DNA of 64,000 bases from Patescibacteria group bacterium (GTDB taxonomy: Bacteria; Patescibacteriota; Dojkabacteria; JAKAPS01): positions 902 to 64,901 of the forward strand of contig JANWIC010000011.1 in the NCBI GenBank assembly GCA_025450075.1, given 5' to 3'. Shown here one piece after another: positions 863 to 34,959 of the stretch; position 1 is the stretch's first letter; each line of letters starts with the position of its first letter. The notes beneath the pieces were generated by a model. That model was not told the DNA's origin. It worked only from the letters and a program-made list of their open reading frames with translations, and ran no database searches. The translations under genes were made by a program, and so were the position numbers.

Positions 863-2584
863 TTAGAATGAGAACGTTTTATCGCTTAATAGTGAATCTT
901 TTTGGGTTTTACCGTTAAAGCTGACTGATACTCCTAAAGAAGATGTACCTGGTTGCTTGTATATATACATACTATACCCGTCTGTTGAAAAGTTTGAAGG
1001 CAAGCTGTACTTTATCACTAATTGCAGTTGTGAAGGTGTGCTTGAAACAGAATCTGTTGAAGGAACTGAAATATGGTCATCTGCAACCGAATACCCCATT
1101 TCACGGTAAGCTCTTAGTGTCCCATCTGCACCTAAAATACTTTCAACCCTGCTTCCTGAAGGTAGATAGATCCGTACCCATGCTTCATACTTTCCATTTT
1201 TTGCAGGATCCTTATCATAGTTATTTACATATGTAATGGTAAGTGTATGTTCCAAGCCGTTTAACTGACTATTCAAACTTCTTGATATATCAGTTATATC
1301 TTTTTGTCCTCCAAGGTTCTCTTCACTCAAACCGATAAAATCTGATCCTGTATTAAGTGGAAATGCTCCACCTAATCCATATTGATTAACAGTATCCTCA
1401 GTTTGTTGATCATCAGCATACAGTATAATATCTTTTTGCATAAATGCTGATTGCAGCATTTTCATAACTGAAACAAGTGAATCACCCTGTGTGTTAAATA
1501 GTTGATTTCCTAAACTCTCTAAAAATATAGGATTTGAAATATATTGTGATAGGTTTAAATCTGTTACTTGGATATGAGAAGAAGGGAGTGAAACCGGTCC
1601 TATTGTTTGTATTACACGAGAAATGAATGAGTGATCTATTGTAACGATCCCGCTCGTATGTTCAATAGAAGGTATTGAGTAATATAATTTTTCAAATTGT
1701 TGCGCACTTGTTACAAAATCCGGGCTTTGATTTGCCCTATCAATACCTAAATTTGCAGTTTTAACATATGCCTGGAGTGTTACTGATGGGCTTGTAGTGC
1801 TCAAAAGCATTTGGTTTAATCCGGATATTGCATTTATCTTAATAGGATTTAATTTCCCCTGAACAAAATCGAGATACCCATACCCGTTTATTTTTCCTCC
1901 TGTCGGAAGAAGTGTTGTTTCATCTTGTATCAAAAGAAGATATGACCTGTTACTAAAAGACCTTTCAAGAATCGGAGTCAATGAATCAAGTTTTGGAAGG
2001 AATGCTATAACGGATTGAAAAGAATCATTAAACGAATTATATGAAGTTTTTAAATCTTTTCCTAAAAATGTTTCTTTCGGTATATAGTGTGGATCAACGA
2101 GCGCAAATGAATTTTGTGCATAGGTAAAATCTGTCATTGCATTATCAATTGTTGGGATAAGTGCTGGAAGTGCATTTAAAAAGGAATCAGTAGAATCTCC
2201 AAAACCTAATGCATTTGCAACTTGTGCGCTATGTTGTGCAATGTTATTTGCACCTGTCGCAATAGATTGGAACCCGGAAATCATATTATCAGCATCCTGA
2301 TAATATTTACTTGTAAAAGGAAGAAGGTTTAAAAGACTAACGGAATGTAATTGTGTATGAAGATTATCAAGATCAGGTCCTAACTTTTGAATACCAATTA
2401 CCAGTCCTTCATAGGAATGTGATGCATATTGTGTTTGAATATATGAGACATCCTGATTTACTTTATCATAAGCGGATGAGATACTTCTCATGCCATTGAT
2501 TAAATATCCACCGATTAAGATTGCAATAATTCCAAGAAAAATACTCAAACAGGAGAATTTTTTATGTTTTGATATCATTCTCAT
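863..2584 (-). CDS. DUF4012-family membrane-anchored protein associated with cell-surface polysaccharide loci
   Basis: 573 aa with an N-terminal TM helix. Signature stretch YLLLIQDETTLLPTGGKINGYGYL resembles the DUF4012 LLL-QN-ELR-TGG-G motif. Sits directly beside a run of GT4 glycosyltransferases. Confidence 0.5.
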   Translation of the reverse strand: MRMISKHKKFSCLSIFLGIIAILIGGYLINGMRSISSAYDKVNQDVSYIQTQYASHSYEGLVIGIQKLGPDLDNLHTQLHSVSLLNLLPFTSKYYQDADNMISGFQSIATGANNIAQHSAQVANALGFGDSTDSFLNALPALIPTIDNAMTDFTYAQNSFALVDPHYIPKETFLGKDLKTSYNSFNDSFQSVIAFLPKLDSLTPILERSFSNRSYLLLIQDETTLLPTGGKINGYGYLDFVQGKLNPIKINAISGLNQMLLSTTSPSVTLQAYVKTANLGIDRANQSPDFVTSAQQFEKLYYSIPSIEHTSGIVTIDHSFISRVIQTIGPVSLPSSHIQVTDLNLSQYISNPIFLESLGNQLFNTQGDSLVSVMKMLQSAFMQKDIILYADDQQTEDTVNQYGLGGAFPLNTGSDFIGLSEENLGGQKDITDISRSLNSQLNGLEHTLTITYVNNYDKDPAKNGKYEAWVRIYLPSGSRVESILGADGTLRAYREMGYSVADDHISVPSTDSVSSTPSQLQLVIKYSLPSNFSTDGYSMYIYKQPGTSSLGVSVSFNGKTQKDSLLSDKTFSF

Positions 2585-3000
2585 GGCTTAAAGCAAAGTA
2601 CACCTATTATAACTGGAAAAAAATCATGAATCAAACCTTGCAAACTCAACTATTTAAGAATATAATCCCCATAATTATCTTATTAAAATGAGACAATCCC
2701 CTACTATTGAAACAAATGATGACCCAAATCATTTTTCTTTATCAAAAAATGCAAAAAGAAGAGTTTTATATTTAATCGGTACACTTTCTTCTATAACGAT
2801 AACAACAGTTGGAATGGGTATTTTTATTTTACGATTTACTTATAAATAATGGCGGTCCATTAGGAGATTATGAGGGGAATCTTGGTTGGGAAGGCTTGGC
2901 AGTTGCTTTACTTGGAGTAGCTGTTGCTAGAGCTACAACAAAATTATACACACAGCCCCCTATATTACAAATGGAGCCGGTTGCCATACATGCAAATTCT

Positions 3001-4101
3001 TCACAGGCTGAATGAAGTTTTGTATTCCTTATATACTTCTTCTATATAATGTTTCAAAGCATATTTAATATTCTTTTTTGAAAACTTCATTGCCTGTTTT
3101 CGAATTTCTTCAGGATTCCAATCTCTTCCTTCTATTTTCACCATTGCGCCATATAGGTCATCTTCACTTTGATCTGAAAAATAGATTCCGGTTTGATTTT
3201 CGACTATTGTTTCCAAAGCACCATCTTTTGCATACGCAATAACTGGTGTACCACAAAGTTGCGCTTCAATAGGAACTAAACCAAGATCATCTGCTCCAGG
3301 AAAAAGTAACGCTTTTGCGGTATTGTAATGTCGAAGCAATGTATGATCATCTACTAAGCCTAAGAAATCAACTTGACCCTGTGCAATATCTTCAAGATAC
3401 CTTCTTTGAGGTCCATCACCGATAATCTTTAACTTTCTTTTATATTTCAAGCAAGTTTGAATAGCTAACTCAATGTGCTTATACGGTTCCATTCGGGATA
3501 CAATCAGATAAAAATCTTCACGAGGAATTGTGGATAATGTGAAGAATGATTCATCAACAGGAGAGTATATGACTTTTGCATTCCTTGCATAAGATTTTGC
3601 TATTCTTTTTTTGGTTGTTGCAGAATTTGCAAGGAAATAATCAACTCGATCCGATGCTACTTTATCCCAAATTCTTAAATAGTTATTAATAAAAGGGAGA
3701 GCTATATTCCTTTGGTGTCTTACTTGCGTACTTGTTTCATATCCCCATAAGAATCTTGGTACAGTTAGAGTATATGAAATATGGCACGTTGAAACAGGTG
3801 TGATAATGCCTTTTGCAAAGCCAGCTGAAATGGATAAAACCAAATCATAATTCTCAAAATGTAAGGATTCTATTGCAGTTGGCATACATGGGACATACAG
3901 CTTTCGTGCATATGATTTAAATGGAAATTTTTGAAGAAAAGAAGAATGAATGTCCCATGTTCTCATGCATTCAGGCATGGAAGATGGAGTGTACAAAAGA
4001 GTATATACTGGAGCATGAGGGTATATTTCATGAAAAAGCTCAAGCATCCTCTCCCCTCCTCCATATACTGTCAGGTAATCATGCACTAATGCTATTTTCA
4101 T
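3001..4101 (-). CDS. Glycosyltransferase family 4 (GT-B, group 1)
   Basis: 366 aa. N-terminal VHDYLTVYGGGERMLE. C-terminal FPGADDLGLVPIEAQLCGTPVIA...ETIVENQTG, the GT1/GT4 E-x7-E-type motif. Confidence 0.75.
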   Translation of the reverse strand: MKIALVHDYLTVYGGGERMLELFHEIYPHAPVYTLLYTPSSMPECMRTWDIHSSFLQKFPFKSYARKLYVPCMPTAIESLHFENYDLVLSISAGFAKGIITPVSTCHISYTLTVPRFLWGYETSTQVRHQRNIALPFINNYLRIWDKVASDRVDYFLANSATTKKRIAKSYARNAKVIYSPVDESFFTLSTIPREDFYLIVSRMEPYKHIELAIQTCLKYKRKLKIIGDGPQRRYLEDIAQGQVDFLGLVDDHTLLRHYNTAKALLFPGADDLGLVPIEAQLCGTPVIAYAKDGALETIVENQTGIYFSDQSEDDLYGAMVKIEGRDWNPEEIRKQAMKFSKKNIKYALKHYIEEVYKEYKTSFSL

Positions 4102-5284
4102 CTATGATGCTGTCAATATATTTTCCAAAAGTTGCTATGAATTTCTCTTTCTTAAAACGTTGGGCATGAGATATACAAATTTCAGGATCAAATTTTAATT
4201 GAGAAAACCGTTGCATTGCTTCGTATAATGAAGAAGAATCCTGTTTATCAAAAAATATTCCCGTTATTCCTTCTTCAATAATATCCTTCGCTCCCCCTCT
4301 ATTAAATGCAATTACCGGTTTGCCTGCAGCCAATGCTTCTACCGGAGCAATACCAAAATCTTCAACTCCTGGCCAGATAAGAGCACGACTATTTGCTAAT
4401 TGTTTTGCAACCTGGTCATCAGATTGTTTTTCAAAAAAAGTGATGTTTGCATTAGATCTTTTTTTTAGTTTTTCAATATACTTTTTGTCTCCGTTTCCAA
4501 CCATATGAAGAGAAAGACCAAGTTTATTAAAAGTATCCACAACAATCTCGAGCTTCCGTAATGGAATGAATCGGCCAATATATATATAATAGCCATTTGT
4601 ATCAGATTTTTCTAAAATTTTAAAACGAAGAGTATCGACAAATGGATGAATAACCACAGATTTCCGTTTATAGAATTTAATAATTCGTTGCTGGGTATAT
4701 CGTGAATTAGCGATAAAATAGTCTACCCTATCGGCTGCAACCCGATCCCAAATACGAAGATAGGAGATAATATATGGATATATCCGTCGAAGGAAAAACC
4801 CTAAATGAAGAGAATCACGATATTGGAAATAGTCCCATGCATATCGGGAAGGGCTATGCATATAACAGATGTGGATTGTATCAGCAGTTGTAATAACTCC
4901 ATGAGCAAATCTGGAGGATGAACTAATGACAAGATCATAACCGCTGAAATCAAAACGCTCAAATATTGCAGGATACAAAAATACAAGTGCTTTTGCATAT
5001 TTCAACATATATTTATTTCTGCCAAAGCGTGGAGTAATAATCTGTATACCTTCATCTTTAAAACCATGTTTTGTCATCCTGCCCGCGTTATAAAAGGAAG
5101 TATAAACAGGAGCTTTTGGATACATTTCATGAATAATTTCGACTATTTTCTCTGCTCCTCCATACTGGTCAAGAGAATCACAAACAATTGCTATTTTCAG
5201 ATCTTTTTTATCTTTCATATTGTAATAAGATATCTCGTACTTTTGAATAAGTATTATCCCAGGTATAAAATCGTGATTTTTCAA
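4079..5284 (-). CDS. Glycosyltransferase family 4. The true start is probably the internal Met near 5218.
   Basis: 401 aa. IAIVCDSLDQYGGAEK... and WPGVEDFGIAPVEALAAGKPVIAFNRGGAKDIIEEGITG motifs. The N-terminal 22 aa overlap the upstream GT. Confidence 0.75.
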   Translation of the reverse strand: MKNHDFIPGIILIQKYEISYYNMKDKKDLKIAIVCDSLDQYGGAEKIVEIIHEMYPKAPVYTSFYNAGRMTKHGFKDEGIQIITPRFGRNKYMLKYAKALVFLYPAIFERFDFSGYDLVISSSSRFAHGVITTADTIHICYMHSPSRYAWDYFQYRDSLHLGFFLRRIYPYIISYLRIWDRVAADRVDYFIANSRYTQQRIIKFYKRKSVVIHPFVDTLRFKILEKSDTNGYYIYIGRFIPLRKLEIVVDTFNKLGLSLHMVGNGDKKYIEKLKKRSNANITFFEKQSDDQVAKQLANSRALIWPGVEDFGIAPVEALAAGKPVIAFNRGGAKDIIEEGITGIFFDKQDSSSLYEAMQRFSQLKFDPEICISHAQRFKKEKFIATFGKYIDSIIDENSISA

Positions 5285-6338
5285 GTCCTTTTTCCCGCAA
5301 AGAATCCCTCAATACCTTATCATCAACGATTTTCTTTAGCAACTCCGCAGCATAAGTCAGGTTAAATTCCTTTGAATCAATTGGCATGCGTAAAGCACTA
5401 TCCTGATATACCTCTTCATATACAGGGATATCAGATATCAGGCAAGGTATTCCGCATGCCATATTCTCAAGCACTGACAAACCAAAACCTTCATACGAAG
5501 AAAGATTGCAATATGCATCAGCATGCTGCATCAAACGAATCTTTTCTTCATCTGATACAAACCCTAAAAAATGGATGGATTCAGATGCATATGAACTGTA
5601 TGCCTCATAACCATCTCCTATGCATACTAGACTATATCCTTGTTCATCATATTGTTCTTTGAATTTTTTGAATACTTCTAATAATAATGAAACATTTTTA
5701 TTCGGTTCATATCCTCCGTAATACAAGATATATTTAGAAGGAACTTTATGTTCTGGAATACCCTGATCTTGCTCAAATCTGGATATATCAACTCCTAATG
5801 GGACAATATCTATTTGGTGCAAATTAAATTTCGATTCTAAATCAAGTTTGGATACTTCTGAGTTAGTTAAAATTCTGTCCGCATATTTTAACAACTTCCA
5901 ATCCTGCATGTATTGTTGTTTCTTCATGAAATTTATAGCTGGATTTAGTGAATACCTACCAGTTGTTGCCTGAATTATGTCATGTACAAAGCATACTGTC
6001 ACATACTGCTTTGGATTGTAAGGCACACCGGAATGGATAAACGGAGAAAAAAATGCTTTAAGTTTTTTACCTTGGCTTGATGAAATATATGTATTGATTC
6101 GGGAATATAGGCCACTTTTATATTTAAATTTTGTAATAGGGGTAAGCGCTATAGACATACCAATATCAACAAAGGAAACTTCTTTTGGAATTTGTATTGT
6201 CGAGCTTGTGGAAAATCCGAATAACACGATTTCTTCAGGGTGCTCCAGAATCCATCTAGAAACAATTTCTTTTGTTACATTTCCAATTCCTCTATATCGA
6301 AATTGGTTCTGGGTTGTGGTGATATCAATACCTATCAT
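5208..6338 (-). CDS. Glycosyltransferase family 4
   Basis: 376 aa. YEGFGLSVLENMACGIPCLISDIPVYEEV is the classic GT1/GT4 nucleotide-sugar binding motif. Confidence 0.75.
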   Translation of the reverse strand: MIGIDITTTQNQFRYRGIGNVTKEIVSRWILEHPEEIVLFGFSTSSTIQIPKEVSFVDIGMSIALTPITKFKYKSGLYSRINTYISSSQGKKLKAFFSPFIHSGVPYNPKQYVTVCFVHDIIQATTGRYSLNPAINFMKKQQYMQDWKLLKYADRILTNSEVSKLDLESKFNLHQIDIVPLGVDISRFEQDQGIPEHKVPSKYILYYGGYEPNKNVSLLLEVFKKFKEQYDEQGYSLVCIGDGYEAYSSYASESIHFLGFVSDEEKIRLMQHADAYCNLSSYEGFGLSVLENMACGIPCLISDIPVYEEVYQDSALRMPIDSKEFNLTYAAELLKKIVDDKVLRDSLREKGLEKSRFYTWDNTYSKVRDILLQYER

Positions 6339-6700
6339 TTTAAGAAGTTTCTGACTTCGTCAGTTAGCTGGCTTGGCAGGATGATTGCTTTAATGAGATA
6401 CCCGTCTGCTCCATTCGCAAACGCTTCATTTATAATTGCCGGTGCATCAATATTAGAGATTAACACAACTTTTATCCCTTTGTATTTCTCATCCGTCTTA
6501 ATTCGTTTTAATGCATCAATACCTGATCCATCAGGAAGCATTATATCAAGAAGAATTAAATCAGGCGAGAATTCATCAATTGATGGGAACATTTCAACTA
6601 TACTTCCGACAACTAAAGTTTCAAAACCATTAAACTCAAGTTCTGATTTATATATATTCGAGATATCCGTGTTGTCTTCAACTATTAATATCTTCGCCAC
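6335..6700 (-). CDS. Response regulator, stand-alone receiver (CheY-like) domain
   Basis: 121 aa. ILIVEDN...[16 protein letters not shown]...KVVLISN pattern with the conserved Asp pocket. No output domain. Start overlaps the GT stop by 4 nt (ATGA). Confidence 0.8.
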   Translation of the reverse strand: MAKILIVEDNTDISNIYKSELEFNGFETLVVGSIVEMFPSIDEFSPDLILLDIMLPDGSGIDALKRIKTDEKYKGIKVVLISNIDAPAIINEAFANGADGYLIKAIILPSQLTDEVRNFLK

Positions 6701-6702
6701 AG

Positions 6703-7938
6703 TTAATTTTTCTGATATGGAATATATATCATGAAATGAATTACATCATCATGATCTTTTTTTAATTCAATTCGTCCTTCATGCGATTCAATAATTAGTT
6801 TTGAAGTATATACTTTCAACATCGAGTTTTTATTCATTTTATTCTCAAATACATATTCATTACTGAATATCTCAAGATTGGCATATTTTTTTACTTCAGC
6901 GGTAACCTCAATGCATAAGTTATCATCAATATGTTTAAATGACATTTGGATCTTTTGACCGGAAATGTTGAAAAGATAGAAAAGTATATTTTTGATTGCA
7001 ATCTTTAACCTATATTCATCAATTCTTACTTGTTCTCCCTTAGCAGTTTCATCCTGGAACCCTATTTCGCATTTAAACAATTTAGAAAATGCTGCAGCAT
7101 CTTCTTTTAAAGTAGCAACAAATTCATTTACGGAGACTACCTTCCTTCGAAGTTTAATTGTATCTTCAATTTCAATAATATGGAGCAATTCTTCAACAAT
7201 ACTATCAACTTTTAAGACATTGGTCAAAATGTTATTAATATACTCAGTCACCCTTTCATCTAAATCTCCAACCCTGCCATGCAGCATCAAGTCAATATAT
7301 CCTTTAATTGCTGACATTGGAGTTTTTATGCTTTCTGCCGCATCAGTTACAAATGTATCTTTTAATTCATTTAATTCTTCTTCATGTACATCGTTTTCAA
7401 GAACTATATTTAACTTTCCTTCTTTTTCATACAGTTCATTTGCAAGCCATCCAGTAATCCAGCTTAAGAAAACTAAAATGAGGATACGGATGAAATATGT
7501 TGTGAAAAAAAGAGAAGAATCATAAGATGGAAGTGAAGCTAGAAGAAAGATTGCATAAGAAAAACCTGCAATAATTCCTTCAGTCATTGCACTTAAAAGA
7601 CCATATTCTGCTGTATTTATAGCAATCGAAAATAGGACAAAAAGATACAAATCAGTATTGAGTGCATTTGCAAAAAAAAGAGCACACGTGAGGGCTGCTC
7701 CGTCAAGTGCTGATACAAAAGCTCCAATTAGTCTTGGATTTGCACCGCGTGATATGAGTAATGAGGCAACATTCTTGTATAGTTCTGATAAAAATATAAT
7801 ACCGAGTAATATTAAAAGAGAAGGTATACTTGCATGGAGTAGAACTGCCGCAAATACAATCATAAGCTTTACCAACACTCGAAGCATAATGAGGACATAG
7901 GTTCGCATCATCATATTTTTGTCTTTAAGTGGGACCAT
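6703..7938 (-). CDS. Membrane sensor histidine kinase with a divergent, possibly degenerate ATP-binding domain
   Basis: 411 aa. Five or six N-terminal TM helices. HisKA-like H-box ESIKTPMSAIKGYIDLMLHG. The C-terminal N-box-like segment IKNILFYLFNIS is present, but no clear DxGxG or GxGxG G-boxes. Confidence 0.6.
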   Translation of the reverse strand: MVPLKDKNMMMRTYVLIMLRVLVKLMIVFAAVLLHASIPSLLILLGIIFLSELYKNVASLLISRGANPRLIGAFVSALDGAALTCALFFANALNTDLYLFVLFSIAINTAEYGLLSAMTEGIIAGFSYAIFLLASLPSYDSSLFFTTYFIRILILVFLSWITGWLANELYEKEGKLNIVLENDVHEEELNELKDTFVTDAAESIKTPMSAIKGYIDLMLHGRVGDLDERVTEYINNILTNVLKVDSIVEELLHIIEIEDTIKLRRKVVSVNEFVATLKEDAAAFSKLFKCEIGFQDETAKGEQVRIDEYRLKIAIKNILFYLFNISGQKIQMSFKHIDDNLCIEVTAEVKKYANLEIFSNEYVFENKMNKNSMLKVYTSKLIIESHEGRIELKKDHDDVIHFMIYIPYQKN

Positions 7939-7981
7939 ACAGGCAATATTTATGTATACTTAATCATATACTGCTCCAGCA

Positions 7982-9130
7982 TTATATACAAGAGGTAATT
8001 ACCTCATGAAGCTTTATTGCTGCACTTTCCCAGCTAAATCTGGAAGCAGCTTTCAATCCTTTGTAAATATATTCTTCCCGTACTTCAAAATGTTCTAAAA
8101 TTCTTTCCAAATGGTTTGCAAATGTATCTGCATCCCTTGGATCAGCAAACATTGCACCATTATCCATGACCTCTCGGATTGCACTAATATTTGATGCAAT
8201 GACACATGTACCACTAAATGATGCTTCAAGCGGGGTCAATCCAACACCTTCAAATCGAGATGGGCAGATAAGTGCAACAGATTTATTTAGGATTGCCTTT
8301 ACTTCAGAATTTTGCTGAACTCTCCCCAATACCAGGACATGCTTTGCAATATTTGTATAATGTTGAGACAAGAGCGTATCAATATCTACAGAATTTTTCA
8401 CTTTCTCCGTATCATATCCACCGATAAGGACAAGGTATAAAGAAGGGTACTTTGGAAGGATTTTTTGTAAAACTTGAAAGGCCGTTTCAAGATTTTTATG
8501 CGGACGTCTATTCCCTACATATACAATATATTGGGAAGGAAGTTGATATTTTTCAATTATTGATTGAATATATGTCTCATCTAAAGGTGCGATGTATTCT
8601 TGTGAAACGGATGGCGTAATGATATGGATACGTTTTGATGGAATATGAAAATATGTTTCAATATCATCTTTCACAGATTTAGTAGAAGCAATTAAACCAA
8701 CAGCAAAACGTGCCATATATGGATAGAATACCTTATCGTACAATTTCTGTTTGAATGAAGTTTTTGCAATATTATGAAAACCAATTAAATCATAAATAAT
8801 CAAAAGATATTTTGGCATGAAAGGAAATGATGACCAAATATCAGTAAGCAAAAGATCCGGTTTCAGCTTTCTATAGATAATTGCAAGATACCAAAAGAGA
8901 AAATATTGTTTAAGAGATCCTCCATTAATATTTACCCTTACATATCTGACTTGTAACTTTGCAAAACTTTCTTTTACAATCTTTTCTCCCCGATCATTAA
9001 AGATAATAATATACTCTTTATCAGGGAAACGTGAAATATATGATGATAATAATGAGAGATAATGACTTCCTATTCCCGTTGGAAAAGGTTTCATCATTCG
9101 AGTATCAATTAGGATCCGTTTGTTCTTCAT
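7982..9130 (-). CDS. Glycosyltransferase family 4
   Basis: 382 aa. PSRFEGVGLTPLEASFSGTCVIASNISAIREV motif. Confidence 0.75.
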   Translation of the reverse strand: MKNKRILIDTRMMKPFPTGIGSHYLSLLSSYISRFPDKEYIIIFNDRGEKIVKESFAKLQVRYVRVNINGGSLKQYFLFWYLAIIYRKLKPDLLLTDIWSSFPFMPKYLLIIYDLIGFHNIAKTSFKQKLYDKVFYPYMARFAVGLIASTKSVKDDIETYFHIPSKRIHIITPSVSQEYIAPLDETYIQSIIEKYQLPSQYIVYVGNRRPHKNLETAFQVLQKILPKYPSLYLVLIGGYDTEKVKNSVDIDTLLSQHYTNIAKHVLVLGRVQQNSEVKAILNKSVALICPSRFEGVGLTPLEASFSGTCVIASNISAIREVMDNGAMFADPRDADTFANHLERILEHFEVREEYIYKGLKAASRFSWESAAIKLHEVITSCI

Positions 9131-9533: not shown

Positions 9534-12068
9534 ATGGATGCAATAAAAAATACAGCTTTGAAAGACATTATCTCTAGTATTACAGACTCTTTAATCTCCT
9601 ATTTACTGCAAAACTCTAAAGATGTTTTGTATGTAAACATGCCACCAGTAAAAATTCCTGAGAAGTTTGAACGTTATATTACTATTGATGACAGGATCCC
9701 TTCAAAGAAATTTGATACCATTATTATAAATATGGATAAAGAAGTAAATGCCGAAAAGGTGGCAAAATATGTCAATAAATTTCAAAAGTATCTCCTTTTG
9801 GTGCATGGTAACAATCAATTTTTTGATCCGCGAAGTTATCCTGAAGTACGAATTGCAATTAGTACATCTCCAATAATTGAACACGTTCATACATTCACAA
9901 AATTAAGTGAAGGCTACAAAGAATTTCGAGATTCACAAGAGAAATTACAAAAATTTATCAAAGAGCATCATTTAAAACTTGGCATAATTGCACCAACGAC
10001 ACAGAATCAATTTGACCATATCCTCATTTTCCATGACAATAATTTAAAGGATCTCTTTATATCATATATTGAAAATGAAAAGAATGAAGATATTTTTCAC
10101 GAATTCTATTCCATGACCTTTTCCCAATATGCAAAGCATATTGACAGCAGGAATATTCGTTTCCAGAAAAATGCTTCCTACCTTATTAAACAATTACAAA
10201 CTGGAAGCAATAGTACCAAAAGAGGAATATCATCGATTTTTCATTCATTGCAATTACATTTGCCTATCATCATACAAAAGATGCGAGGGAAATCAAATGC
10301 AATTGGATCAAAATTACAAAAAGGAATTCAGACTATTTCTAAAGCAAGAACAAATATTCCAAAAGTAGAAAACAAAGAAAAACTCACCAATAAAAAACCT
10401 CATATGCAGTTAAAAACTGCAACTATACAAAAGGAGAAAGTATCGTCTCAATTGGACAAATTAAAAGTTACACTTTATCAAAGACAACACATTCCTATGG
10501 TGAAAACGATGTCATATGAATCATTTCTTGCAAGACAAAAAAAAGGATTTTTAGAACAATTACAGGAACGACGTTCTTTGCAAACTCTCAAACTACAACC
10601 GAAAGTATCCATACTTTTGGTTGTTGATGATATTGATGAAATTTGGTTAAACAAATCTGTTCGATCAATTAAAGACCAGACATATAAACACTGGGAACTG
10701 GTTATAGTTGATAATTGTTCTCCTAGGACATATTTGAAATCATATTTATCATCTTTAAATGATCCACGAATTAAAACCCATTTCTATAACACAAAAAAGA
10801 CATATGCAGAATGTCTTTCCCATGCATATAAAGTGGCGAAAGGTGAATATTTAGCAATTCTTCATGAAGGAGATGAATTGGATATCAATCTTCTATATCA
10901 TTTTGTTCGGGAAATCAACAAAGAATCGTCACTCGAGTTTATCTATTGTGATGAAGATGAAATTAATGAACAGGGAAAACGAGTTCATCCATTTATCAAA
11001 CCTGCTTGGGATAAAACTCTCATTCTATCTTATCCATATGCAAAAAATATATTTGTTGCAAAGCGGGAATTGCTTGAAAGGATAGATGGATTTAAAAACC
11101 TTGCTACAAAAGACCCGTTATGGGATATCATGATCAAAACAAGAAGTGCAACAAATAATATTGGCCATATCTCTAAAATCTTGTACCATAAACGCCATCG
11201 TCCACTCCAGTCAGGAACACCAAAACAGGTCTATCCTGATGCAATTAAACAATTTATGGCAAGAGAAACAATCCAGGGTGTTGTTAAAGAATCACAATAT
11301 CCGGGAAGCTTTTATATCATTGATAAGCAAGTACAAAATCCACAAGTGTCTTTAGTATTGATTGAGCAAAACCCTGACAACCTCGCAAAGTTTCTGGAGA
11401 ATTTCTCCTGTTCATACAATCAATTTGATATTCATGCCGTATTACCAGTAAATACCCAATTCTCAAACAAGGAAAACATCTATCTCCATTCATTCCAAGA
11501 TTTCTCATTTAGCAAAATTACACAACAAATTCTTCAAGAAAGTAATAGTGACTATCTGCTCTTCATCGACAGTAGGATTCGACCTGTTAATTCGGATTTT
11601 TTATCTATTATGCTTAGTTACAGTCAAAATCGTGCTATAGTTGGAACTAAAATCCTTGATCCGGATGACATGGTTATTCATTCGATGTATGTCCTCAATC
11701 TCCGAGAGGTTGTATCAAGTCTTTATGAAGGACAGATTGATCAAGGCCAATTTGATATATCAATCACACGAGAATGCAGTGCTGTTTCAAGAAAATGTAT
11801 GCTTGTACCAAAGGAATTTCTTCTTACTCATCAATTAGATGATGGATATACTTCATCATATGCTGATATTGATTTGTGTCTGCAGGCACAAAAAGATCAA
11901 ATTCCAGTTATATATACTCCTGATGCATATGCAAAAGCAATTTATGCTTATTCCAAAGAAAAGTTTCACGAGGCAGATACGGTCTATTTTATAAAGAAGT
12001 GGAAAGAAAAGTTAAAAGGAAATGATCCATTCATAGATATCTCCCGTTTCCTATCAATCAAAGCGTAG
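9534..12068 (+). CDS. Large multidomain glycosyltransferase: unknown N-terminal domain followed by two GT2 (GT-A) domains
   Basis: 844 aa. First GT2 signature VSILLVVDDIDEIWLNKSVRSIKDQTYKHWELVIVDNCSP. Second GT-A-like domain runs from about aa 600 (QVSLVLIEQNPDN... DDGYTSSYADIDLCLQ). The N-terminal 350 aa have no recognisable motif. Confidence 0.6.
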   Translation: MDAIKNTALKDIISSITDSLISYLLQNSKDVLYVNMPPVKIPEKFERYITIDDRIPSKKFDTIIINMDKEVNAEKVAKYVNKFQKYLLLVHGNNQFFDPRSYPEVRIAISTSPIIEHVHTFTKLSEGYKEFRDSQEKLQKFIKEHHLKLGIIAPTTQNQFDHILIFHDNNLKDLFISYIENEKNEDIFHEFYSMTFSQYAKHIDSRNIRFQKNASYLIKQLQTGSNSTKRGISSIFHSLQLHLPIIIQKMRGKSNAIGSKLQKGIQTISKARTNIPKVENKEKLTNKKPHMQLKTATIQKEKVSSQLDKLKVTLYQRQHIPMVKTMSYESFLARQKKGFLEQLQERRSLQTLKLQPKVSILLVVDDIDEIWLNKSVRSIKDQTYKHWELVIVDNCSPRTYLKSYLSSLNDPRIKTHFYNTKKTYAECLSHAYKVAKGEYLAILHEGDELDINLLYHFVREINKESSLEFIYCDEDEINEQGKRVHPFIKPAWDKTLILSYPYAKNIFVAKRELLERIDGFKNLATKDPLWDIMIKTRSATNNIGHISKILYHKRHRPLQSGTPKQVYPDAIKQFMARETIQGVVKESQYPGSFYIIDKQVQNPQVSLVLIEQNPDNLAKFLENFSCSYNQFDIHAVLPVNTQFSNKENIYLHSFQDFSFSKITQQILQESNSDYLLFIDSRIRPVNSDFLSIMLSYSQNRAIVGTKILDPDDMVIHSMYVLNLREVVSSLYEGQIDQGQFDISITRECSAVSRKCMLVPKEFLLTHQLDDGYTSSYADIDLCLQAQKDQIPVIYTPDAYAKAIYAYSKEKFHEADTVYFIKKWKEKLKGNDPFIDISRFLSIKA

Positions 12069-14570
12069 AGGCTGGTTAGGGAGTATCTGAGTTCTTCTTT
12101 CTTCATGATGTGAACGTTCTTCTTCAAAAAGAGGTGCAGAAACATTTTTTATCTCTTCATGTTTGAATTGATATGCTTTCATACTCCATTCCTTTATCCA
12201 TTCGTTTACATCTGCTTCAGGGGATGCATACATTGTTCTACTGTATCGCAATATTTCATCCCGAATATGTGTAGCAGCAAAAGGCATTTGGATACTTGCA
12301 GCACTAAATGGTTTTGATACAACTCCTTGTATCATCAGCTTCACATAGACCTCATATCTATCAAGACTCATAAGATCATTTGCTGATAGAATTGGAAGAA
12401 ATTCTCTTTCCAGCACTTGCGCATCTGGGGACCCGAGAACAAAGGTAATGAGCGTTCCAATATTTCCCATGATCGCATCTTTTACATGTTCTTCAAGTTG
12501 TGAAAGATGTTGATGTGCAAGAATTAAATCAAGACGATATTTCCTTGCCTCTGAAAGGATTTTTGTAAATACATCGGTTGCAAACACCTGGAATTCATCG
12601 ATATAGAGATAGAAATCCTCTCTCTGGCTTTCTAAAATACTTACCCTTGCCATTGCAGCCATTTGCATTTTTGTAATTACTAGGCTACCAAGAAGTGAAG
12701 CATTTTCTTCGCCAATTTTCCCTTGAGAAACGTTGCATAAGAATATTTTCTTCTTATTCATGATTTCATCAAAATCAATTTTGTTATGTGTTTGACCAAT
12801 AATATTCCGAAGCATCGGTGATGAAACAAATCGTCCAACTTTGTTTTGAATCGGGGTAATTGCCTCAGTTACTAATCTCGGATTTCTTTCCATATATGCA
12901 TATTCTTCATTCCAAAACTTTTGCAGTATCGGATCTGTTATATTGGAAACGACATATTGTCGATATCCTTTATCAGTAAGCATACGGGATATACCAAGAA
13001 GAGTTGCATCAGGAGTATATAAAAGACTTAATATGACATTATGTAAAATATATTCTAGACGTGGTCCCCATGAATCAAAATGTTTTTTAAATACTGCAAG
13101 GATGCTTGCTGCAATATATTCTCTCTGGGAAGGATGGTCAAATGCAAATATGTTTAAAGAGGCAGGATAAGCAGAATCAGATGGATCAAGCAAGACCACA
13201 TCTTCAACCCGTTCAGATGGAATATGTTCAAGTATTTCATCAATCAGGTCGCCATGAGGATCTATTACACCAACCCCATTACCGGCAAGGATGTCTTGCA
13301 AAATCATATTGCACAGCATTGTCGTCTTACCGCTCCCAGTTTTTCCAAGAAGATACATATGTTTCCTTCTATCTTCTTTCAAAATCCCAAACTGTTTCCC
13401 TCCGCCTCGGTAATTTGTCTGTGCTATGGTAAGCATATTATCTGTCGGCAAATTTAATGGTGGATCAGATCTTCTTGCTTTGAGCCAAATAATTTCTGGT
13501 GTTGTTATGTTTGCATGAGGAAGATGATAAAGTGTAGCAATTTCTGCACAACTGAAAATATCCTGCGCTTCAACATCCAAAAATCTAGTTTTATAATGGT
13601 CAAGCATTTGAGCAGTATATTTATCATTATCCTGTAATACTTTTAATGAATTAAGATGGAATGAATCAACTTGTTTCAGTGCATGAATTACATTTAACAG
13701 GTGTTCTTCAGCCCTCTTTACATCTTGAGATGAAGAAACAATACGAATAGTGCCAGCATAACCATGCTGATGGAATTTTTCTTCGATGGAGTGAATTTCC
13801 TCTTCTTGTGTCTTATCAAGCATCACATTAGATTTTACTTTCCAATGTCTTACTCCAAATATCCATTCATAGATCCTTGTTGTTACGGTAAAAATTGATA
13901 GCCCTGCTTTCCAACCGCTTTTTATTTTAGTCCCTTTTTGCCACGCGGTTAAGTATTCTTTCCCTGCTTTGTGCCAGCTATCATGTAGCGGCCTTATGAC
14001 AAACTGTATTCCCATAGAATCAAACTGCTCCATCCCACCTAATGAAGATGTGATTGATGAAAGTAAATCAACATGAAATTGTTCTCCTGTTTTTATTGGG
14101 AAAAGTGATTCTTTTTCCAATTCGATTTCTGCAGCCTTTATGGTCATTTGCATTTCTCCCCCCATATGCAAACCCTGGGCATAATCATCAACGACATTAA
14201 TCTCTGCTGAAGGATAATGTGCATACCATTGTCCTTCTATATAGTTTTTGTATTGCCGGGGACATACGATATACCATTGGATACCAAAAGGTGTAGCATA
14301 ATATTCACAACTCAAATGGACATAAGAATGTCTCTTTTTTCCCACTATGCTGTGCATAGATGAAAAAAGTTGTTGCGCTTGATCATAGGAAGAAAGATCC
14401 TGTTTCGGGACAAGAATTCGTAATACAACACAATCTTGTATTGTTTCCTCAATATTGTCGATATCAAGATCCCGATTGCGGATAATTTCAATAATTACCG
14501 ATACTGAGATGATAACAATAATTGCAATGATCCAACCAATGCCAAACTCTGGTATTGAAAAAAGAGGCAT
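12054..14570 (-). CDS. Membrane-anchored FtsK/HerA/VirD4-superfamily P-loop ATPase (type IV coupling protein-like, DUF87-like)
   Basis: 838 aa with an N-terminal TM helix and a roughly 400-aa domain without recognisable motifs. Walker A GKTGSGKTT followed by VIDPHGDL. Walker B FYLYIDEFQ. AHQHLSQL resembles the TQS..QL motif of TraD/VirD4/HerA ATPases. Confidence 0.55.
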   Translation of the reverse strand: MPLFSIPEFGIGWIIAIIVIISVSVIIEIIRNRDLDIDNIEETIQDCVVLRILVPKQDLSSYDQAQQLFSSMHSIVGKKRHSYVHLSCEYYATPFGIQWYIVCPRQYKNYIEGQWYAHYPSAEINVVDDYAQGLHMGGEMQMTIKAAEIELEKESLFPIKTGEQFHVDLLSSITSSLGGMEQFDSMGIQFVIRPLHDSWHKAGKEYLTAWQKGTKIKSGWKAGLSIFTVTTRIYEWIFGVRHWKVKSNVMLDKTQEEEIHSIEEKFHQHGYAGTIRIVSSSQDVKRAEEHLLNVIHALKQVDSFHLNSLKVLQDNDKYTAQMLDHYKTRFLDVEAQDIFSCAEIATLYHLPHANITTPEIIWLKARRSDPPLNLPTDNMLTIAQTNYRGGGKQFGILKEDRRKHMYLLGKTGSGKTTMLCNMILQDILAGNGVGVIDPHGDLIDEILEHIPSERVEDVVLLDPSDSAYPASLNIFAFDHPSQREYIAASILAVFKKHFDSWGPRLEYILHNVILSLLYTPDATLLGISRMLTDKGYRQYVVSNITDPILQKFWNEEYAYMERNPRLVTEAITPIQNKVGRFVSSPMLRNIIGQTHNKIDFDEIMNKKKIFLCNVSQGKIGEENASLLGSLVITKMQMAAMARVSILESQREDFYLYIDEFQVFATDVFTKILSEARKYRLDLILAHQHLSQLEEHVKDAIMGNIGTLITFVLGSPDAQVLEREFLPILSANDLMSLDRYEVYVKLMIQGVVSKPFSAASIQMPFAATHIRDEILRYSRTMYASPEADVNEWIKEWSMKAYQFKHEEIKNVSAPLFEEERSHHEERRTQILPNQPLRFD

Positions 14571-14630: not shown

Positions 14631-17624
14631 TTAAGAAAATGATACGTAGAGAATTTTATCATCCACTCCTATAGGTTTTCCTTGTTGTTCACCTGTTTCT
14701 TTAACAGAAGATGCATTCACTGCTTTTTGCAATATCATCGAATTTTTTGCTACAAGATCTGTTAGTTCCTGGTTATCAGAGAAATATACAAGATGTATCT
14801 TATCATCCATCTTCAAATTTTCATCTTTTCGCATACTTTGGATATATCGGATGATTTCCCTAAGCATTCCTTCCTCTTTCAATTCTGGCGTGATACGGGT
14901 ATCTAGAGTTACAAAAAGGTGCATTGCTTCTCCATCTTCAGATTGAGTAACAAATCCTTCAGCTACTTTGCCATTTTGAGAATATATAACTTCCTTTACA
15001 TTCAGCTCATCTTTAATGATTTCTTGCATATCTTCATCTTTGATCGGCACAATTGCACTTGCAAGTGGCTGTCGAACTTTCAGACTGTTTGTCACTCGGA
15101 TACTTTGACCAAGAGATGAAAGCTTCCGGACAATTGCCATGCTTTCCAAAATCTTTGTGTTGATTTCTTTTGTCGTATCTGGATAAAATTCAAGATGCAC
15201 TGATTCCTTAGCTTCTTTTAACCCTGCACCTACAACAAGATTTTGGTAAATCTCTTCAGTTAGAAAAGGCATTTGTGGAGCAAAAGTCTTTGCATATTGC
15301 ACCATTACGGCATAAAGTGTTTGCAAGGCATCAGTGTCTCCCTCAGCAAATCTTTCCCTTGATCTTCTGATAAACCAGCTTGAGATCCCATCGATCGCTT
15401 CCTGTGCAAGTTTTACAGATGAAGGTATATTATATGCTTCTAGTCTGGAAGCATATTCTTTACTTATCATAAGCATGTATTCTCTTACCCAAATATCAAG
15501 CGGATTAGAAGATGTATATGCAGTTGTTTTTGGAGTCCAGTTATGGACATTTGCATAAATCACCAGATATTTATATGTATTCCAGATAGGAAGCAAAACA
15601 TTTTTAATCTGTTCTTTCAAAAGTTCATCTGACCAGTTCATATCATCTCCAACCATGATAGGAGATCCCATCATATACAATCGGAGTGCTTCTCCTCCAA
15701 TATGCTCAAGCACTTCCTTCGGATCAGGATAGTTTCCATAAGATTTACTCATCTTTCTTCCATCATTTCCTGCAAGAACTCCTGTACAAATGACATTTTT
15801 AAATGCAGTATCATCAAATATGATAGTTGAAAGCCTGAGAAGCACATTAAACCATGCCCGAACTTGGCCAATATATTCAATGATATAGTCGGCAGGACCG
15901 GATTGTTCATACACTTCTTTGTTTTCAAATGGATAATGGTATTCTGCAAATGGGACAGATCCTGAATCCATCCAGCAGTCTAATACTTCAGGTACACGGT
16001 GATATTCCTTACCATCTTTTTTCAGAACTATCTTATCTCCCACATCTTTATGAAGATCGAAGGGTTTATTCTCAAAGAAATATGATACTTTTCCATTTAC
16101 TTCCTTCTTACTCACCTGGTCAGTATATGTCAATAACTCTGCAATACTGCCGATGACAATTTCATCTCCATCTTCATTTACCCAGATTGGCATGATTGTT
16201 GCCCAGAAACGGTTTCGGGAAATACACCAGTCTGGAGATGTCGCAACAGTTTGAGCAAATCTTCCATCTTTAATATATTCCGGTATCCAATTTAATTCCT
16301 GGTTCAATTCAAGCATTCTATCCTTGATCTTTTGAATATTGATAAAATATGCATCCTGTGCCATATATATCAATGGGTTTTCACCTCGATAAAACGGTAA
16401 CCTGTGTGTATAGGGAAGCGATCGAAGTAATCGCTCTTTTTGCTGCATATCTTCCGCAACGAGTGGAGAGGCATCTCGAAGATATATTCCTACCCATGGA
16501 TCCAAAGTCATTTTCCCTGCTTCATCAATATCCGGGATTGCACTTAATTCATGTTTCAATCCAAAATTGAAATCGACCTCTCCAAATGCAGGAGCTATAT
16601 GAAGGACTCCAGTTCCTTCATCAAGAACGACATCATCACTTATATAAACATGAAAATCATTTTCCTGTTTTTTGTCTTCAAAAAATGTATAAACTGGTTC
16701 ATAAGCCAGTCCATCAAGCTTTTTCCCTTTAAAAGTATCACATATCTGGACAGCCATATCAGGCTCAGTTCCAACCTCGTTATCATGTACACCAAATGTA
16801 TAAGCCACCCTGTCTTTGGCAACAATAAAGTATTCACCAATATATTTGACTAGGCAATAATCTGCTTTTTCATTTACTGCTAATGCAAAGTTTGCAGGAA
16901 TCGTCCAAGGAGTTGTAGTCCATGCGACCATATATACAGGCTCAGTTTTGTTGAAAGGATTCTTTTCCTGAAGTGGAAACTTCACAAAGACGCTGAGATC
17001 TTCAACATCTTTATAGTTATCAGCATCCATAGCAACTTCAAATTGAGATACTGGTGTTGATGTATCTGTCGAAAACATTGATACCCGCTTTCCTTTATAT
17101 ATAAGACCTTTATCATAGATCTGCTTAAATCCCCATATAACTGATTCCATATATTCAGTACTCATGGTGTAATATGCATGATCCATGTCTACCCATCTGC
17201 CTATTTTATCAATATACCATCGCCAATCTGATGTGCATGTTTTGATATATTCCTTACATGCATCAATATAAGCATCAACTCCAACCCTATTTTCAATTTC
17301 TGCACTGGATTTAATTCCTAATTTTTTATTCACTTTTTCCTCAATTGGTAATCCATGGCAATCCCACCCCCATACTCTTCTTACTTTCTTCCCTTTCATA
17401 GTCCAGTATCTGGGTATAACATCTTTTGCAATAGAAGGCAGTAATGATCCGTAATGAGGATTTCCTGTTACAAACGGTGGTCCGTCAACAAACTTATACC
17501 TGTCATCATCAGGTCTTTGGTCGACTGACTTTTGAAAGATATCATGTTCTTTCCAGAATGCTGTGATTCGATCTTCCATCTGGGGAAAATTAACACGTTC
17601 ATCCACTTTTTTAAATGCTGCCAT
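14631..17624 (-). CDS. ileS: Isoleucyl-tRNA synthetase
   Basis: About 1000 aa class I aaRS. GWDCHGLPIE (IleS-specific), KMSKS (KMSKSYGNYPDP) and a HIGH-region variant PHYGSL. The ORF track begins at a TTG at 17645; the ATG at 17624 (MAAFKKVDERVNFPQ...) is the likelier start. Confidence 0.85.
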   Translation of the reverse strand: MAAFKKVDERVNFPQMEDRITAFWKEHDIFQKSVDQRPDDDRYKFVDGPPFVTGNPHYGSLLPSIAKDVIPRYWTMKGKKVRRVWGWDCHGLPIEEKVNKKLGIKSSAEIENRVGVDAYIDACKEYIKTCTSDWRWYIDKIGRWVDMDHAYYTMSTEYMESVIWGFKQIYDKGLIYKGKRVSMFSTDTSTPVSQFEVAMDADNYKDVEDLSVFVKFPLQEKNPFNKTEPVYMVAWTTTPWTIPANFALAVNEKADYCLVKYIGEYFIVAKDRVAYTFGVHDNEVGTEPDMAVQICDTFKGKKLDGLAYEPVYTFFEDKKQENDFHVYISDDVVLDEGTGVLHIAPAFGEVDFNFGLKHELSAIPDIDEAGKMTLDPWVGIYLRDASPLVAEDMQQKERLLRSLPYTHRLPFYRGENPLIYMAQDAYFINIQKIKDRMLELNQELNWIPEYIKDGRFAQTVATSPDWCISRNRFWATIMPIWVNEDGDEIVIGSIAELLTYTDQVSKKEVNGKVSYFFENKPFDLHKDVGDKIVLKKDGKEYHRVPEVLDCWMDSGSVPFAEYHYPFENKEVYEQSGPADYIIEYIGQVRAWFNVLLRLSTIIFDDTAFKNVICTGVLAGNDGRKMSKSYGNYPDPKEVLEHIGGEALRLYMMGSPIMVGDDMNWSDELLKEQIKNVLLPIWNTYKYLVIYANVHNWTPKTTAYTSSNPLDIWVREYMLMISKEYASRLEAYNIPSSVKLAQEAIDGISSWFIRRSRERFAEGDTDALQTLYAVMVQYAKTFAPQMPFLTEEIYQNLVVGAGLKEAKESVHLEFYPDTTKEINTKILESMAIVRKLSSLGQSIRVTNSLKVRQPLASAIVPIKDEDMQEIIKDELNVKEVIYSQNGKVAEGFVTQSEDGEAMHLFVTLDTRITPELKEEGMLREIIRYIQSMRKDENLKMDDKIHLVYFSDNQELTDLVAKNSMILQKAVNASSVKETGEQQGKPIGVDDKILYVSFS

Positions 17625-17830
17625 AACTATATTGATAAAATACAAAAAAACACCCTTATCTCAGGGTGTTTTAAAACACGTACCGTCCTGTTTCGTCATA
17701 GAGTTTATGACCTTTTTTCGCTGTTTCGGGCTTACCCGTCCGGTTCTACTTAGCTTTTCTGCTTTTCTTCCGGCTCCTTGCTGCTGATAACAGCTTAATC
17801 GGATGGCATCATTATATACAAAATATGAAT
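17625..17830 (-). promoter_or_regulatory. Candidate T-box riboswitch leader of ileS (transcription attenuation type)
   Basis: Minus-strand RNA contains hairpin GCUG-UUAUCAG-CAGC with the Ile codon AUC followed by A in the terminal loop (AUC at 17786-17788). Stem III-like hairpin GUCAUA/UAUGAC. T-box-like AACAGGACGGUACGUG. The antiterminator (CAGG - 7-nt bulge ACGGUAC - GUGUU/AACAC - CCUG) has a 3' strand that is the 5' strand of the intrinsic terminator. Confidence 0.5.
17643..17672 (-). terminator. Leader intrinsic terminator (attenuator) upstream of ileS
   Basis: Minus strand: AACACCCUGAGAUAAGGGUGUU followed by UUUUUUU, about 20 nt before the ileS ATG. It overlaps the putative antiterminator. 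Confidence 0.55.
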
Positions 17831-30975: not shown

Positions 30976-31001
30976 CCTCGATATACAAGATAGAAATGGG
31001 G

Positions 31002-34886: not shown

Positions 34887-34959
34887 TGACCCTACCGGGA
34901 TTCGAACCCGGATTGTTGGAATGAGAATCCAATGTCCTAAACCATTAGACGATAGGGCC
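34887..34959 (-). tRNA. tRNA-Glu (anticodon CUC)
   Basis: Cloverleaf folds cleanly: acceptor GGCCCUA/UAGGGUC, T-loop UUCGAAU with a 5-bp GC stem, anticodon stem UUGGA/UCCAA and loop UUCUCAU. No encoded CCA. A TATAAT box lies about 13 nt upstream. Confidence 0.8.

Follow-up and report, generated by a model that had tools for sequence, protein, structure and literature searches.

Introduction

Much of bacterial diversity belongs to the Patescibacteria, epibionts with minimal genomes, and a gene that the whole phylum has kept is therefore probably important to their way of life. The Patescibacterial type IV secretion system (T4SS) is the first one shown to be essential for its own carrier bacterium, and yet its gene cluster has no coupling protein. 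Relaxase-less T4SS are widespread in the phylum, and the essential cluster of Southlakia is without a recognisable coupling or relaxase protein (Wang et al. 2023, PMC10633639). Here we consider a gene at 12054-14570 on the minus strand of a 64-kb stretch of Dojkabacteria DNA (contig JANWIC010000011.1, positions 902 to 64,901), whose product joins a domain of the family DUF8128 to an ATPase of the type found in type IV coupling proteins (T4CPs). The whole stretch, which we call the window, is part of a source contig of 69,361 bp, with 5.4 kb of the contig lying outside it.

Among the closest described systems are the T4CP homologues of Quinonero-Coronel et al. (2025, PMC12102498), whose survey took in 3,035 genomes of the phylum. 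VirB4 homologues number 2,474 in 2,417 of these genomes and are normally flanked by TrsD, VirB3 and VirB6, while 5,713 VirD4-type T4CP homologues are found in 2,918 genomes, just 148 of them near virB4, and relaxases are few. In Southlakia the T4CP homologue is non-essential and the T4SS genes are essential; the authors raise the possibility that the T4CP homologues were exapted (PMC12102498). A 2025 review gives the same picture. The orphan T4CP of ultra-small bacteria is thus an already published phenomenon, and our homologue search agrees with it, as had been expected from the sequence of the window alone. The protein studied here shares with the homologues of PMC12102498 the phylum, the VirD4 type, the distance from virB4 and the lack of relaxases, and may be one of them. 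The DUF8128 domain, the VirB4-like fold and the split or fused arrangement are not described in that paper. A full-text literature search for "DUF8128" found no paper, and within the literature that can be searched these three (the DUF8128 module, the VirB4-like predicted fold and the split/fused relationship) are what is new here.

The window protein is an uncharacterised T4CP-like ATPase without partners, of the catalogued family DUF8128 plus T4CP. It offers a concrete candidate, a DUF8128 anchor with a TrwB-type motor that are fused or split according to lineage. The VirB4-like fold predicted for the N-terminal domain suggests how a coupling-type motor could dock at the T4SS inner-membrane complex, or work alone. 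It also provides a structural hypothesis for a DUF whose sequence clusters number over 4,000 and bears on the evolutionary relation of VirB4 and VirD4. With the genetic tools that now exist for Southlakia and Nanosynbacter, the question is open to direct test.

The fused protein

The listing of open reading frames (ORFs) has exactly one ATG ORF at 12054-14570, of 838 amino acids (aa) plus the stop, on the minus strand, as have all its features given below. The ORF is complete, with DUF8128 fused to the T4CP-type ATPase: the 100% identical protein P0001 carries PF26449, PF10412 and PF01935, and the full-length AlphaFold model is confident (pLDDT 90.0, pTM 0.83). The ORF is far beyond chance, because at least 623 homologues are found, the best match other than itself reaches E=6.5e-286, and there are 42 invariant columns in the profile of 109 family sequences over which conservation is counted throughout this work. 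The original prediction had described a membrane-anchored ATPase with one N-terminal transmembrane (TM) helix at this place and had quoted several motifs; the 838-aa frame, the helix and every one of these motifs are present.

The single TM helix (residues 11-33, 14472-14540) is found by hydropathy, is a helix in both models, and is kept as an N-terminal hydrophobic helix in 28 of the first 30 homologues. Because R31 and R33 follow the helix, the positive-inside rule would place both domains in the cytoplasm, and the predicted topology is N-out/C-in. At the other end of the protein, a charged tail (residues 801-838, 12057-12170) is predicted to be disordered (pLDDT 43-53) and varies within the family; a zinc ribbon (zf_Tbcl_2) takes its place in the split ATPases of Parcubacteria, described below.

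The ATPase half

The ATPase module (residues 376-800, 12171-13445) is defined by Pfam, a profile search of the PDB, HHalign, Foldseek and BLASTP. Pfam places TrwB_AAD_bind (PF10412; 39.9 bits, cut-off 20.5), DUF87 (25.6 bits, cut-off 23.2) and TraG-D_C (PF12696; 24 bits, cut-off 22) over their thresholds, with FtsK_SpoIIIE (PF01580) at 15.9 bits under its cut-off of 24. The top NCBIfam models are TraD and VirD4-like, all far under their equivalog cut-offs (TraD 40.5 bits against 366, VirD4 CD1115 30.7 against 250, TrbC 25.4 against 800). When the 109-member profile is run against all PDB sequences, TrwB comes first (1.2e-6), followed by DotL (2.1e-5) and then by a "DNA helicase" (9x1l, 6.7e-3). 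HHalign of the family profile with TrwB gives Prob 97% and E=8.6e-11 over 280 columns, including the region between the Walker motifs; with the same profile PcfC scores 0.013, the VirB4 protein TrwK 0.036 and the VirB4 protein PrgJ 0.0054. In structure, Foldseek places the C-terminal half on TrwB (TMt 0.66-0.69, rmsd 4.4-4.8 A), then on Cagbeta and DotL, and the match to HerA (4D2I) has E=8.8e-14. Judged by sequence, the ATPase is of the VirD4/TrwB type within the HerA-FtsK superfamily. A T4CP/HerA-FtsK-type ATPase is also what had been proposed from its motifs, and the T4CP-specific profile matches set it apart from a generic AAA+ ATPase without T4CP motifs.

The motifs themselves can be read off in order. 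Walker A is GKTGSGKT (residues 409-416, 13323-13346), where G409, G412, G414 and K415 are invariant. It is followed by VIDPHGD (residues 435-441, 13248-13268) with D437, P438, H439 and G440 invariant, which pairs in the alignment of hidden Markov models with IVDPNGD in the region of residues 84-90 of TrwB. Walker B is FYLYIDEF (residues 653-660, 12591-12614), and D658, E659 and Q661 are invariant. Further on, EARKYRLDLILAHQHLSQL (residues 674-692, 12495-12551), with E674, R676, K677, Q687 and Q691 invariant, is aligned to ...KGRKAGLRVVAGLQSTSQL of TrwB by both the profile search and HHalign, and ends in AHQHLSQL (residues 685-692). It contains a candidate arginine finger and a Q-rich sensor motif; R676 is the residue that we take to be the finger, from what is known of TrwB. 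With Walker A and the DPHG strand invariant, and likewise D658 and E659 of Walker B, the pair R676/K677 and Q687/Q691, the motor is catalytically complete.

Between Walker A and Walker B lies an all-alpha insertion (residues ~480-605, 12756-13133), which is helical in the model and falls within the HHalign match to TrwB. Its near-invariant residues include W501, G502, P503, R504, E556, R588, N589 and Q593. This insertion corresponds to the all-alpha domain of T4CPs, with a conservation that is unusually high.

The comparison with the established T4CPs (TrwB of R388, PDB accession code 1E9R; DotL; Cagbeta) can now be drawn. They have in common with the window protein Walker A, the DPxGD strand, Walker B, the R/K pair, the Q-rich motif and the all-alpha insertion between the Walker motifs, the all-alpha domain being highly conserved in the window family. 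Unlike them, the window protein has no two-helix N-terminal membrane domain; one TM helix and the 335-aa DUF8128 stand in its stead, and its gene is chromosomal and vertically inherited rather than linked to relaxase or T4SS genes. HerA and FtsK/SpoIIIE belong to the same P-loop superfamily, and DUF87 is over threshold, but the window protein has no HAS-barrel, scores 11.7 bits on the NCBIfam HerA model (cut-off 970) and has an N-domain whose fold matches VirB4 instead. Neither the multi-pass membrane domain nor the gamma domain of FtsK/SpoIIIE is present in the window protein, which has its single TM helix only.

The DUF8128 domain

The N-terminal region had been thought to be a novel domain of about 400 aa with no recognisable motifs. 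It is instead the catalogued Pfam family PF26449/DUF8128, an alpha/beta domain of about 335 aa (residues 40-375, 13446-14453) that is assigned in the precomputed annotation of P0001 and agrees with the model, Foldseek and BLASTP. Nearly all homologues are annotated with PF26449; the Pfam scan that gave no match on residues 1-395 used a model set without this family. DUF8128 comprises 4,214 clusters at 50% identity and has strongly conserved motifs. One of these is the linker motif ...EIATLYHLP...RRSDPPLNLP (residues 340-375, 13446-13553), in which E343, H349, P351 and P371 are invariant. Inserted in the domain is a variable hydrophobic helix of low confidence (residues 218-246, 13833-13919, pLDDT 46-55). 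The homologues P0007 and P0013 have a hydrophobic segment at the equivalent place, and the helix may be a membrane-associating segment.

The next question is which known fold the domain resembles. The AlphaFold model of the N-domain (pLDDT 88.5, pTM 0.84) was compared with the PDB by Foldseek, and the top 14 matches are all TrwK/VirB4 of R388 (E=2.1e-6 to 3.4e-4); beyond them there is a step of more than 1000-fold in E-value to unrelated folds. The full-length model aligns collinearly with full-length TrwK/VirB4 over ~930 columns, which is its best match (E=4.5e-16), at low TM-scores of 0.26-0.33. The predicted fold of DUF8128 thus resembles the N-terminal half of VirB4. The link is structural only, because four profile comparisons (values given below) show no sequence similarity. 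Homology of DUF8128 at the sequence level to the VirB4 N-terminal domain (NTD) or TrsD was considered separately and is rejected, all four HHalign tests being negative.

VirB4 (TrwK of R388, PDB accession codes 7O42, 7O43 and 8RTD) and the window protein share a plan of an N-domain of ~400 aa followed by an ATPase of ~400 aa, ~800 aa in all. They differ in that the ATPase of the window protein is nearer to TrwB than to VirB4 by sequence, and in that VirB3, VirB6 and VirB8 neighbours are lacking at the window gene. Pfam CagE_TrbE_VirB (PF03135) and PF27097 do not match the protein, and NCBIfam VirB4_CagE scores 13.1 bits against a cut-off of 643. In TrsD and TrsE (VirB4) of pGO1 there is a further parallel, the N-domain being likewise known both in fused form and as a separate upstream gene.

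Split and fused forms

The proteins that match the DUF8128 profile are bimodal in length, with fusions at 800-1,100 aa and a sharp peak at 400-450 aa. The standalone proteins of 400-450 aa stop exactly at the linker motif (...EELATVYHFP...KK.EPP..LP-stop). This subfamily has more than 2,155 members from Azambacteria/Parcubacteria, labelled "hypothetical protein" and carrying PF26449 only. At two such loci, L017 and L018, on contigs of more than 100 kb, a T4CP-like ATPase gene lies 20 and 117 nt downstream of the standalone DUF8128 gene on the same strand. These ATPases, of 523 and 542 aa, have TrwB_AAD_bind, T4SS-DNA_transf and TraG-D_C together with a C-terminal zinc ribbon.

How exactly do the two halves correspond? 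BLASTP aligns window residues 46-375 with the standalone DUF8128 protein of L017 (E=3e-24) and window residues 376-817 with the ATPase of L017 from its residue 2 onwards (47% identity, E=7e-149), which puts the split/fusion boundary at window residues 375/376. On this alignment the linker motif is taken to be the C-terminus of the standalone DUF8128 proteins and the point of fusion or fission. The split ATPase of L017 has no TM segment. With a DUF8128-only alignment as query, 80 metagenome loci were found, of which 75 are one-ORF fusions with the ATPase and 5 are cut by the contig end; DUF8128 without an ATPase occurs in none of the 75 loci that can be evaluated. The pattern of fission and fusion, the boundary at 375/376 and the split ATPase without a TM segment show that DUF8128 and the ATPase are a two-part module whose parts work together, and they imply that DUF8128 supplies the membrane anchor.

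Further variants of the arrangement were seen. The split ATPases (L017, 11266-12837; L018, 11288-12916) end in the zf_Tbcl_2 zinc ribbon that the window protein is missing, and both loci lie in a conserved block, HPF-SecA-PDDEXK-MPG-SecD-SecF-sigma70-[DUF8128][ATPase]-EF-P-RNR. In candidate division WS6 OLB20 (L013, JYNZ01000003.1, 9411-11977) the gene is broken inside DUF8128 into ORFs of 197 and 658 aa that overlap by 4 nt, whether through a frameshift or an assembly error, or because it is a pseudogene. A metagenome-assembled genome of Desulfobacteraceae (L009, CAYRFN010000002.1, 8873-11467) encodes a protein of 864 aa whose linker and ATPase are 32% identical to the window protein from window residue 336 onwards, behind an unrelated N-domain of ~375 aa; it sits beside an AAA+ ATPase and a TPR protein, with metabolic genes following. 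From the L009 protein it seems that, outside Patescibacteria, this motor has been joined to different N-domains.

Proposed function

We turn our attention to what such a module might do. The most likely reading, which we put at about an even chance, is a membrane-anchored two-module motor that cooperates with a relaxase-less T4SS encoded elsewhere in the genome. Module 1 (residues 1-375), the TM helix and DUF8128, would be a cytoplasmic domain held at the membrane as anchor and adaptor, replacing the two-helix membrane domain of canonical coupling proteins. In predicted fold it is most like the VirB4 N-terminal half, which attaches VirB4 to VirB3/VirB8 and to the membrane, and such an N-domain would be a natural means of docking on VirB3/VirB8-type partners. 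Module 2 (residues 376-800), the TrwB/VirD4-type P-loop ATPase with its all-alpha insertion, is expected by analogy with TrwB to form a hexameric ring at the membrane. ATP hydrolysis would drive the engagement of a polymer, possibly DNA or unfolded protein, through the conserved all-alpha domain, and the substrate would be passed to a membrane conduit. The most likely conduit would be the chromosomal relaxase-less T4SS (VirB4/TrsD/VirB3/VirB6/VirB2-like) elsewhere in the genome, whose cluster has no coupling protein.

Several observations weigh against this proposal. No T4SS gene is found in the 64-kb window, nor within 10 kb in the relatives examined. T4CP homologues occur in more genomes (2,918) than VirB4 does (2,417 of 3,035), and the T4CP homologue of Southlakia, possibly not of the DUF8128 type, is non-essential in contrast to the essential T4SS (PMC12102498); both facts favour a role that is independent or accessory. 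With one TM helix per subunit, there is also little to build a channel from. The TM-scores of the N-domain to VirB4 are modest (0.37-0.43), and the likeness to the VirB4-NTD comes from Foldseek alone: HHalign of DUF8128 gives E=0.37 with TrwK, E=0.54 with PrgJ, E=0.24 with TrsD and E=0.23 with a 19-sequence VirB4-NTD profile, and a permissive profile search of the PDB with DUF8128 returned de novo designed proteins only.

The first alternative, appreciably less probable but a serious one, is an exapted housekeeping role independent of any T4SS, in which the protein would be an autonomous membrane-bound translocase of DNA or another polymer and DUF8128 its dedicated membrane platform. Examples would be the handling of DNA at division or recombination, or the import or export of nucleic acid or another polymer. 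The published survey points this way: only 148 of the 5,713 T4CP genes are near virB4, genomes with T4CPs outnumber those with VirB4, the Southlakia homologue is non-essential beside an essential T4SS, and exaptation is raised by the authors themselves (PMC12102498). The protein family adds that the module carries its own anchor in place of the canonical T4CP membrane domain, and that the all-alpha domain, variable in plasmid T4CPs, ranks here with the best-conserved parts, suggestive of a single conserved substrate. One clade of relatives has the gene beside yebC-ruvCAB and dnaB, but these DNA-repair neighbours belong to that narrow clade and are absent from the window and 10 other loci. T4SS coupling is moreover the only function established for TrwB-type ATPases, and a VirB4-like N-domain suits docking on the T4SS inner-membrane complex.

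A bolder form of this alternative, which we regard as rather improbable, makes DUF8128 plus T4CP a phylum-wide, T4SS-independent, self-anchoring translocase and an architectural intermediate between VirB4 and VirD4. If true, it would carry a polymer, be it DNA, fragments of nucleic acid or something else, across the membrane or along it, and its uses might be, for example, the scavenging of host-derived material or the handling of chromosomes and recombination. Should the branch of its nucleotide-binding domain prove basal to the plasmid T4CPs, the family would preserve the ancestor, and coupling proteins would have arisen by losing a VirB4-like N-domain.

The collinear Foldseek match raises another possibility, that the protein is a divergent VirB4-type assembly ATPase and not a coupling protein. 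TrwK/VirB4 is its best full-length match (E=4.5e-16), the N-domain matches VirB4 only, and the split DUF8128 and ATPase mirror TrsD and TrsE of pGO1. We consider this unlikely, since by HHalign the ATPase is nearer to TrwB (8.6e-11) than to the VirB4 proteins (0.036 and 0.0054), CagE_TrbE_VirB and PF27097 are without a match, the VirB4-NTD profile meets DUF8128 at E=0.23, the full-length TM-scores to VirB4 are low (0.26-0.33), and the TrsD, VirB3 and VirB6 flanks of Patescibacterial VirB4 are absent from the window.

A good deal less likely still is that the gene came with an integrated mobile element, conjugative or other, as its cargo or as what is left of it, the rest of the element having decayed or lying outside the window. 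Divergent relatives of the ATPase do occur on IMG/VR contigs, one of which has an SF1 helicase and a second TraG-D_C protein (L025), and ~5.4 kb of the source contig lie beyond the window. The 64 kb, however, have no integrase, relaxase, T4SS or phage gene and a uniform base composition; the position by ileS or the GT4 cluster is kept in relatives of only 44-46% identity; and the family is found phylum-wide in housekeeping contexts, whereas the mobile relatives mostly lack DUF8128. A mobile-element origin of the window copy is rejected, the IMG/VR relatives being divergent and mostly ATPase-only.

Least credible of all is an anti-phage defence ATPase, HerA-like or like mad8 of MADS, for which PADLOC mad8 (PDLC04140) matches residues 401-745 (E=9.5e-16, 56 bits) along with weak HerA model matches, but which is rejected: TrwB of R388, run as a control, reaches 258 bits (E=3.5e-77) on the same model, so that mad8 is a T4CP profile whose matches alone are not evidence of MADS; the Pfam annotation of the window shows no further MADS gene and no Sir2, nuclease or methylase partner in the vicinity; and the gene, unlike defence islands, is kept throughout the phylum and passed on vertically in tiny genomes. 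For the window copy, the readings that tie it to glycosylation, to defence or to a mobile element are excluded.

Neighbourhood and inheritance

The 3' end of the ATPase ORF overlaps by 15 nt the 3' end of a convergent gene for an 844-aa glycosyltransferase (9534-12068, plus strand), and the ORF begins 60 nt downstream of ileS (14631-17645, minus strand), which is confirmed as isoleucyl-tRNA synthetase (E=5e-186 against a solved IleRS). This convergent arrangement with a GT2 gene and the adjoining ileS are as the original prediction gave them. Its "double-GT2" neighbour turns out to have a single recognisable GT2 domain (residues 372-467, Pfam), and its view that the gene is embedded in a glycosylation locus proves to describe an incidental neighbourhood. 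A scan for promoters and terminators around the ATPase gene gave counts at chance level.

A contig scan with the single protein as query reached 6 close relatives. Relatives on contigs of 0.7-1.1 Mb sit among housekeeping genes. IleRS adjoins the gene in L005 and L007, and the cluster of GT4 and histidine-kinase genes recurs in L006 and L008, in relatives that are 44-46% identical. Over 12 diverse loci no neighbour is common to all, the only gene family present in every one being the ATPase gene itself, and no T4SS or relaxase gene lies within 10 kb in L001, L003 and L010-L013. Because ileS and the GT4/histidine-kinase genes recur in the closest relatives only, they speak for vertical inheritance of the position and not for a functional tie to glycosylation. 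This indicates that the gene is chromosomal and vertically inherited, and that its glycosylation neighbourhood is lineage synteny and incidental. In L003, DUF4012 and GT4 genes are found ~6 kb from the family gene.

The absence of relaxase, VirB4 and pilin genes, claimed earlier for 12 kb on either side, extends to the whole 64 kb, and the gene is likewise an orphan in relatives on contigs of ~1 Mb. Pfam annotation of ~60 ORFs over the full window finds no VirB4, VirB6, VirB8, relaxase, integrase, phage or pilin gene, and no conjugative element is visible in the window, outside which 5.4 kb of the contig lie. What it does find is RecO, four GT4, one GT2, a two-component pair, IleRS, sortase, SerRS, HPF, UppP, SecA, two GreA, FtsEX, RF2, MiaA, Def, RelA/SpoT, RecJ, RecX, RecA, SecDF, an NTase/HEPN pair, an ABC-F protein and Fmt. 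The GC content is even (0.33-0.39). The whole window is core housekeeping chromosome.

One fairly narrow clade of relatives (L040-L119, median identity of the main protein 70%) has a membrane protein of ~396 aa directly upstream of the gene in 72 of 72 cases. This partner is on the same strand with a modal gap of 42-46 nt, is N-terminally anchored and fast-evolving, and carries a weak LytR_C label; examples are L071 4658-5848 and L001 8705-9724. Neither the window nor the other clades have it, and the PDB holds no sequence relative of it. In the same clade yebC, ruvC, ruvA, ruvB, dnaB and an RluD-like gene recur within 6 kb.

The relatives from IMG/VR (L020-L039) are mostly ATPase-only proteins of 385-456 aa, 40-46% identical, with no DUF8128 gene nearby. 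Two paralogous ATPases per locus are seen in L029 and L032-L035. L025 has a DUF8128 fusion of ~1,035 aa beside an SF1 helicase, a 2OG-Fe(II) oxygenase protein and a second TraG-D_C protein, and looks like a mobile element.

Other genes of the window

The adjoining IleRS (14631-17645, minus strand) has its best scores with IleRS structures of Thermus and of the eukaryote (cytoplasmic) type (E~1e-186 to 1e-176) and much weaker ones with those of the S. aureus and E. coli type (1e-75 to 1e-60); because of this difference it appears to be a type-2 IleRS. The first ~360 aa of the 844-aa glycosyltransferase are without a Pfam match. Beyond it, at 863-9130 on the minus strand, lie the genes for a DUF4012 protein and for four GT4 glycosyltransferases, with those of a response-regulator/histidine-kinase pair (6335-7938) set among them. 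The genes for a nucleotidyltransferase (Polbeta/NTP_transf_2, 113 aa) and a HEPN protein (159 aa), which lie between SecD and an AP endonuclease, overlap by 4 nt (54346-55163, minus strand) and are a typical MNT-HEPN toxin-antitoxin pair. A tRNA-Glu(CTC) gene at 34887-34959 (minus strand) is the sole tRNA gene detected in the window. Finally, two tandem paralogues of the GreA/GreB family (153 and 158 aa), each with both domains, lie at 30514-31478 on the minus strand.

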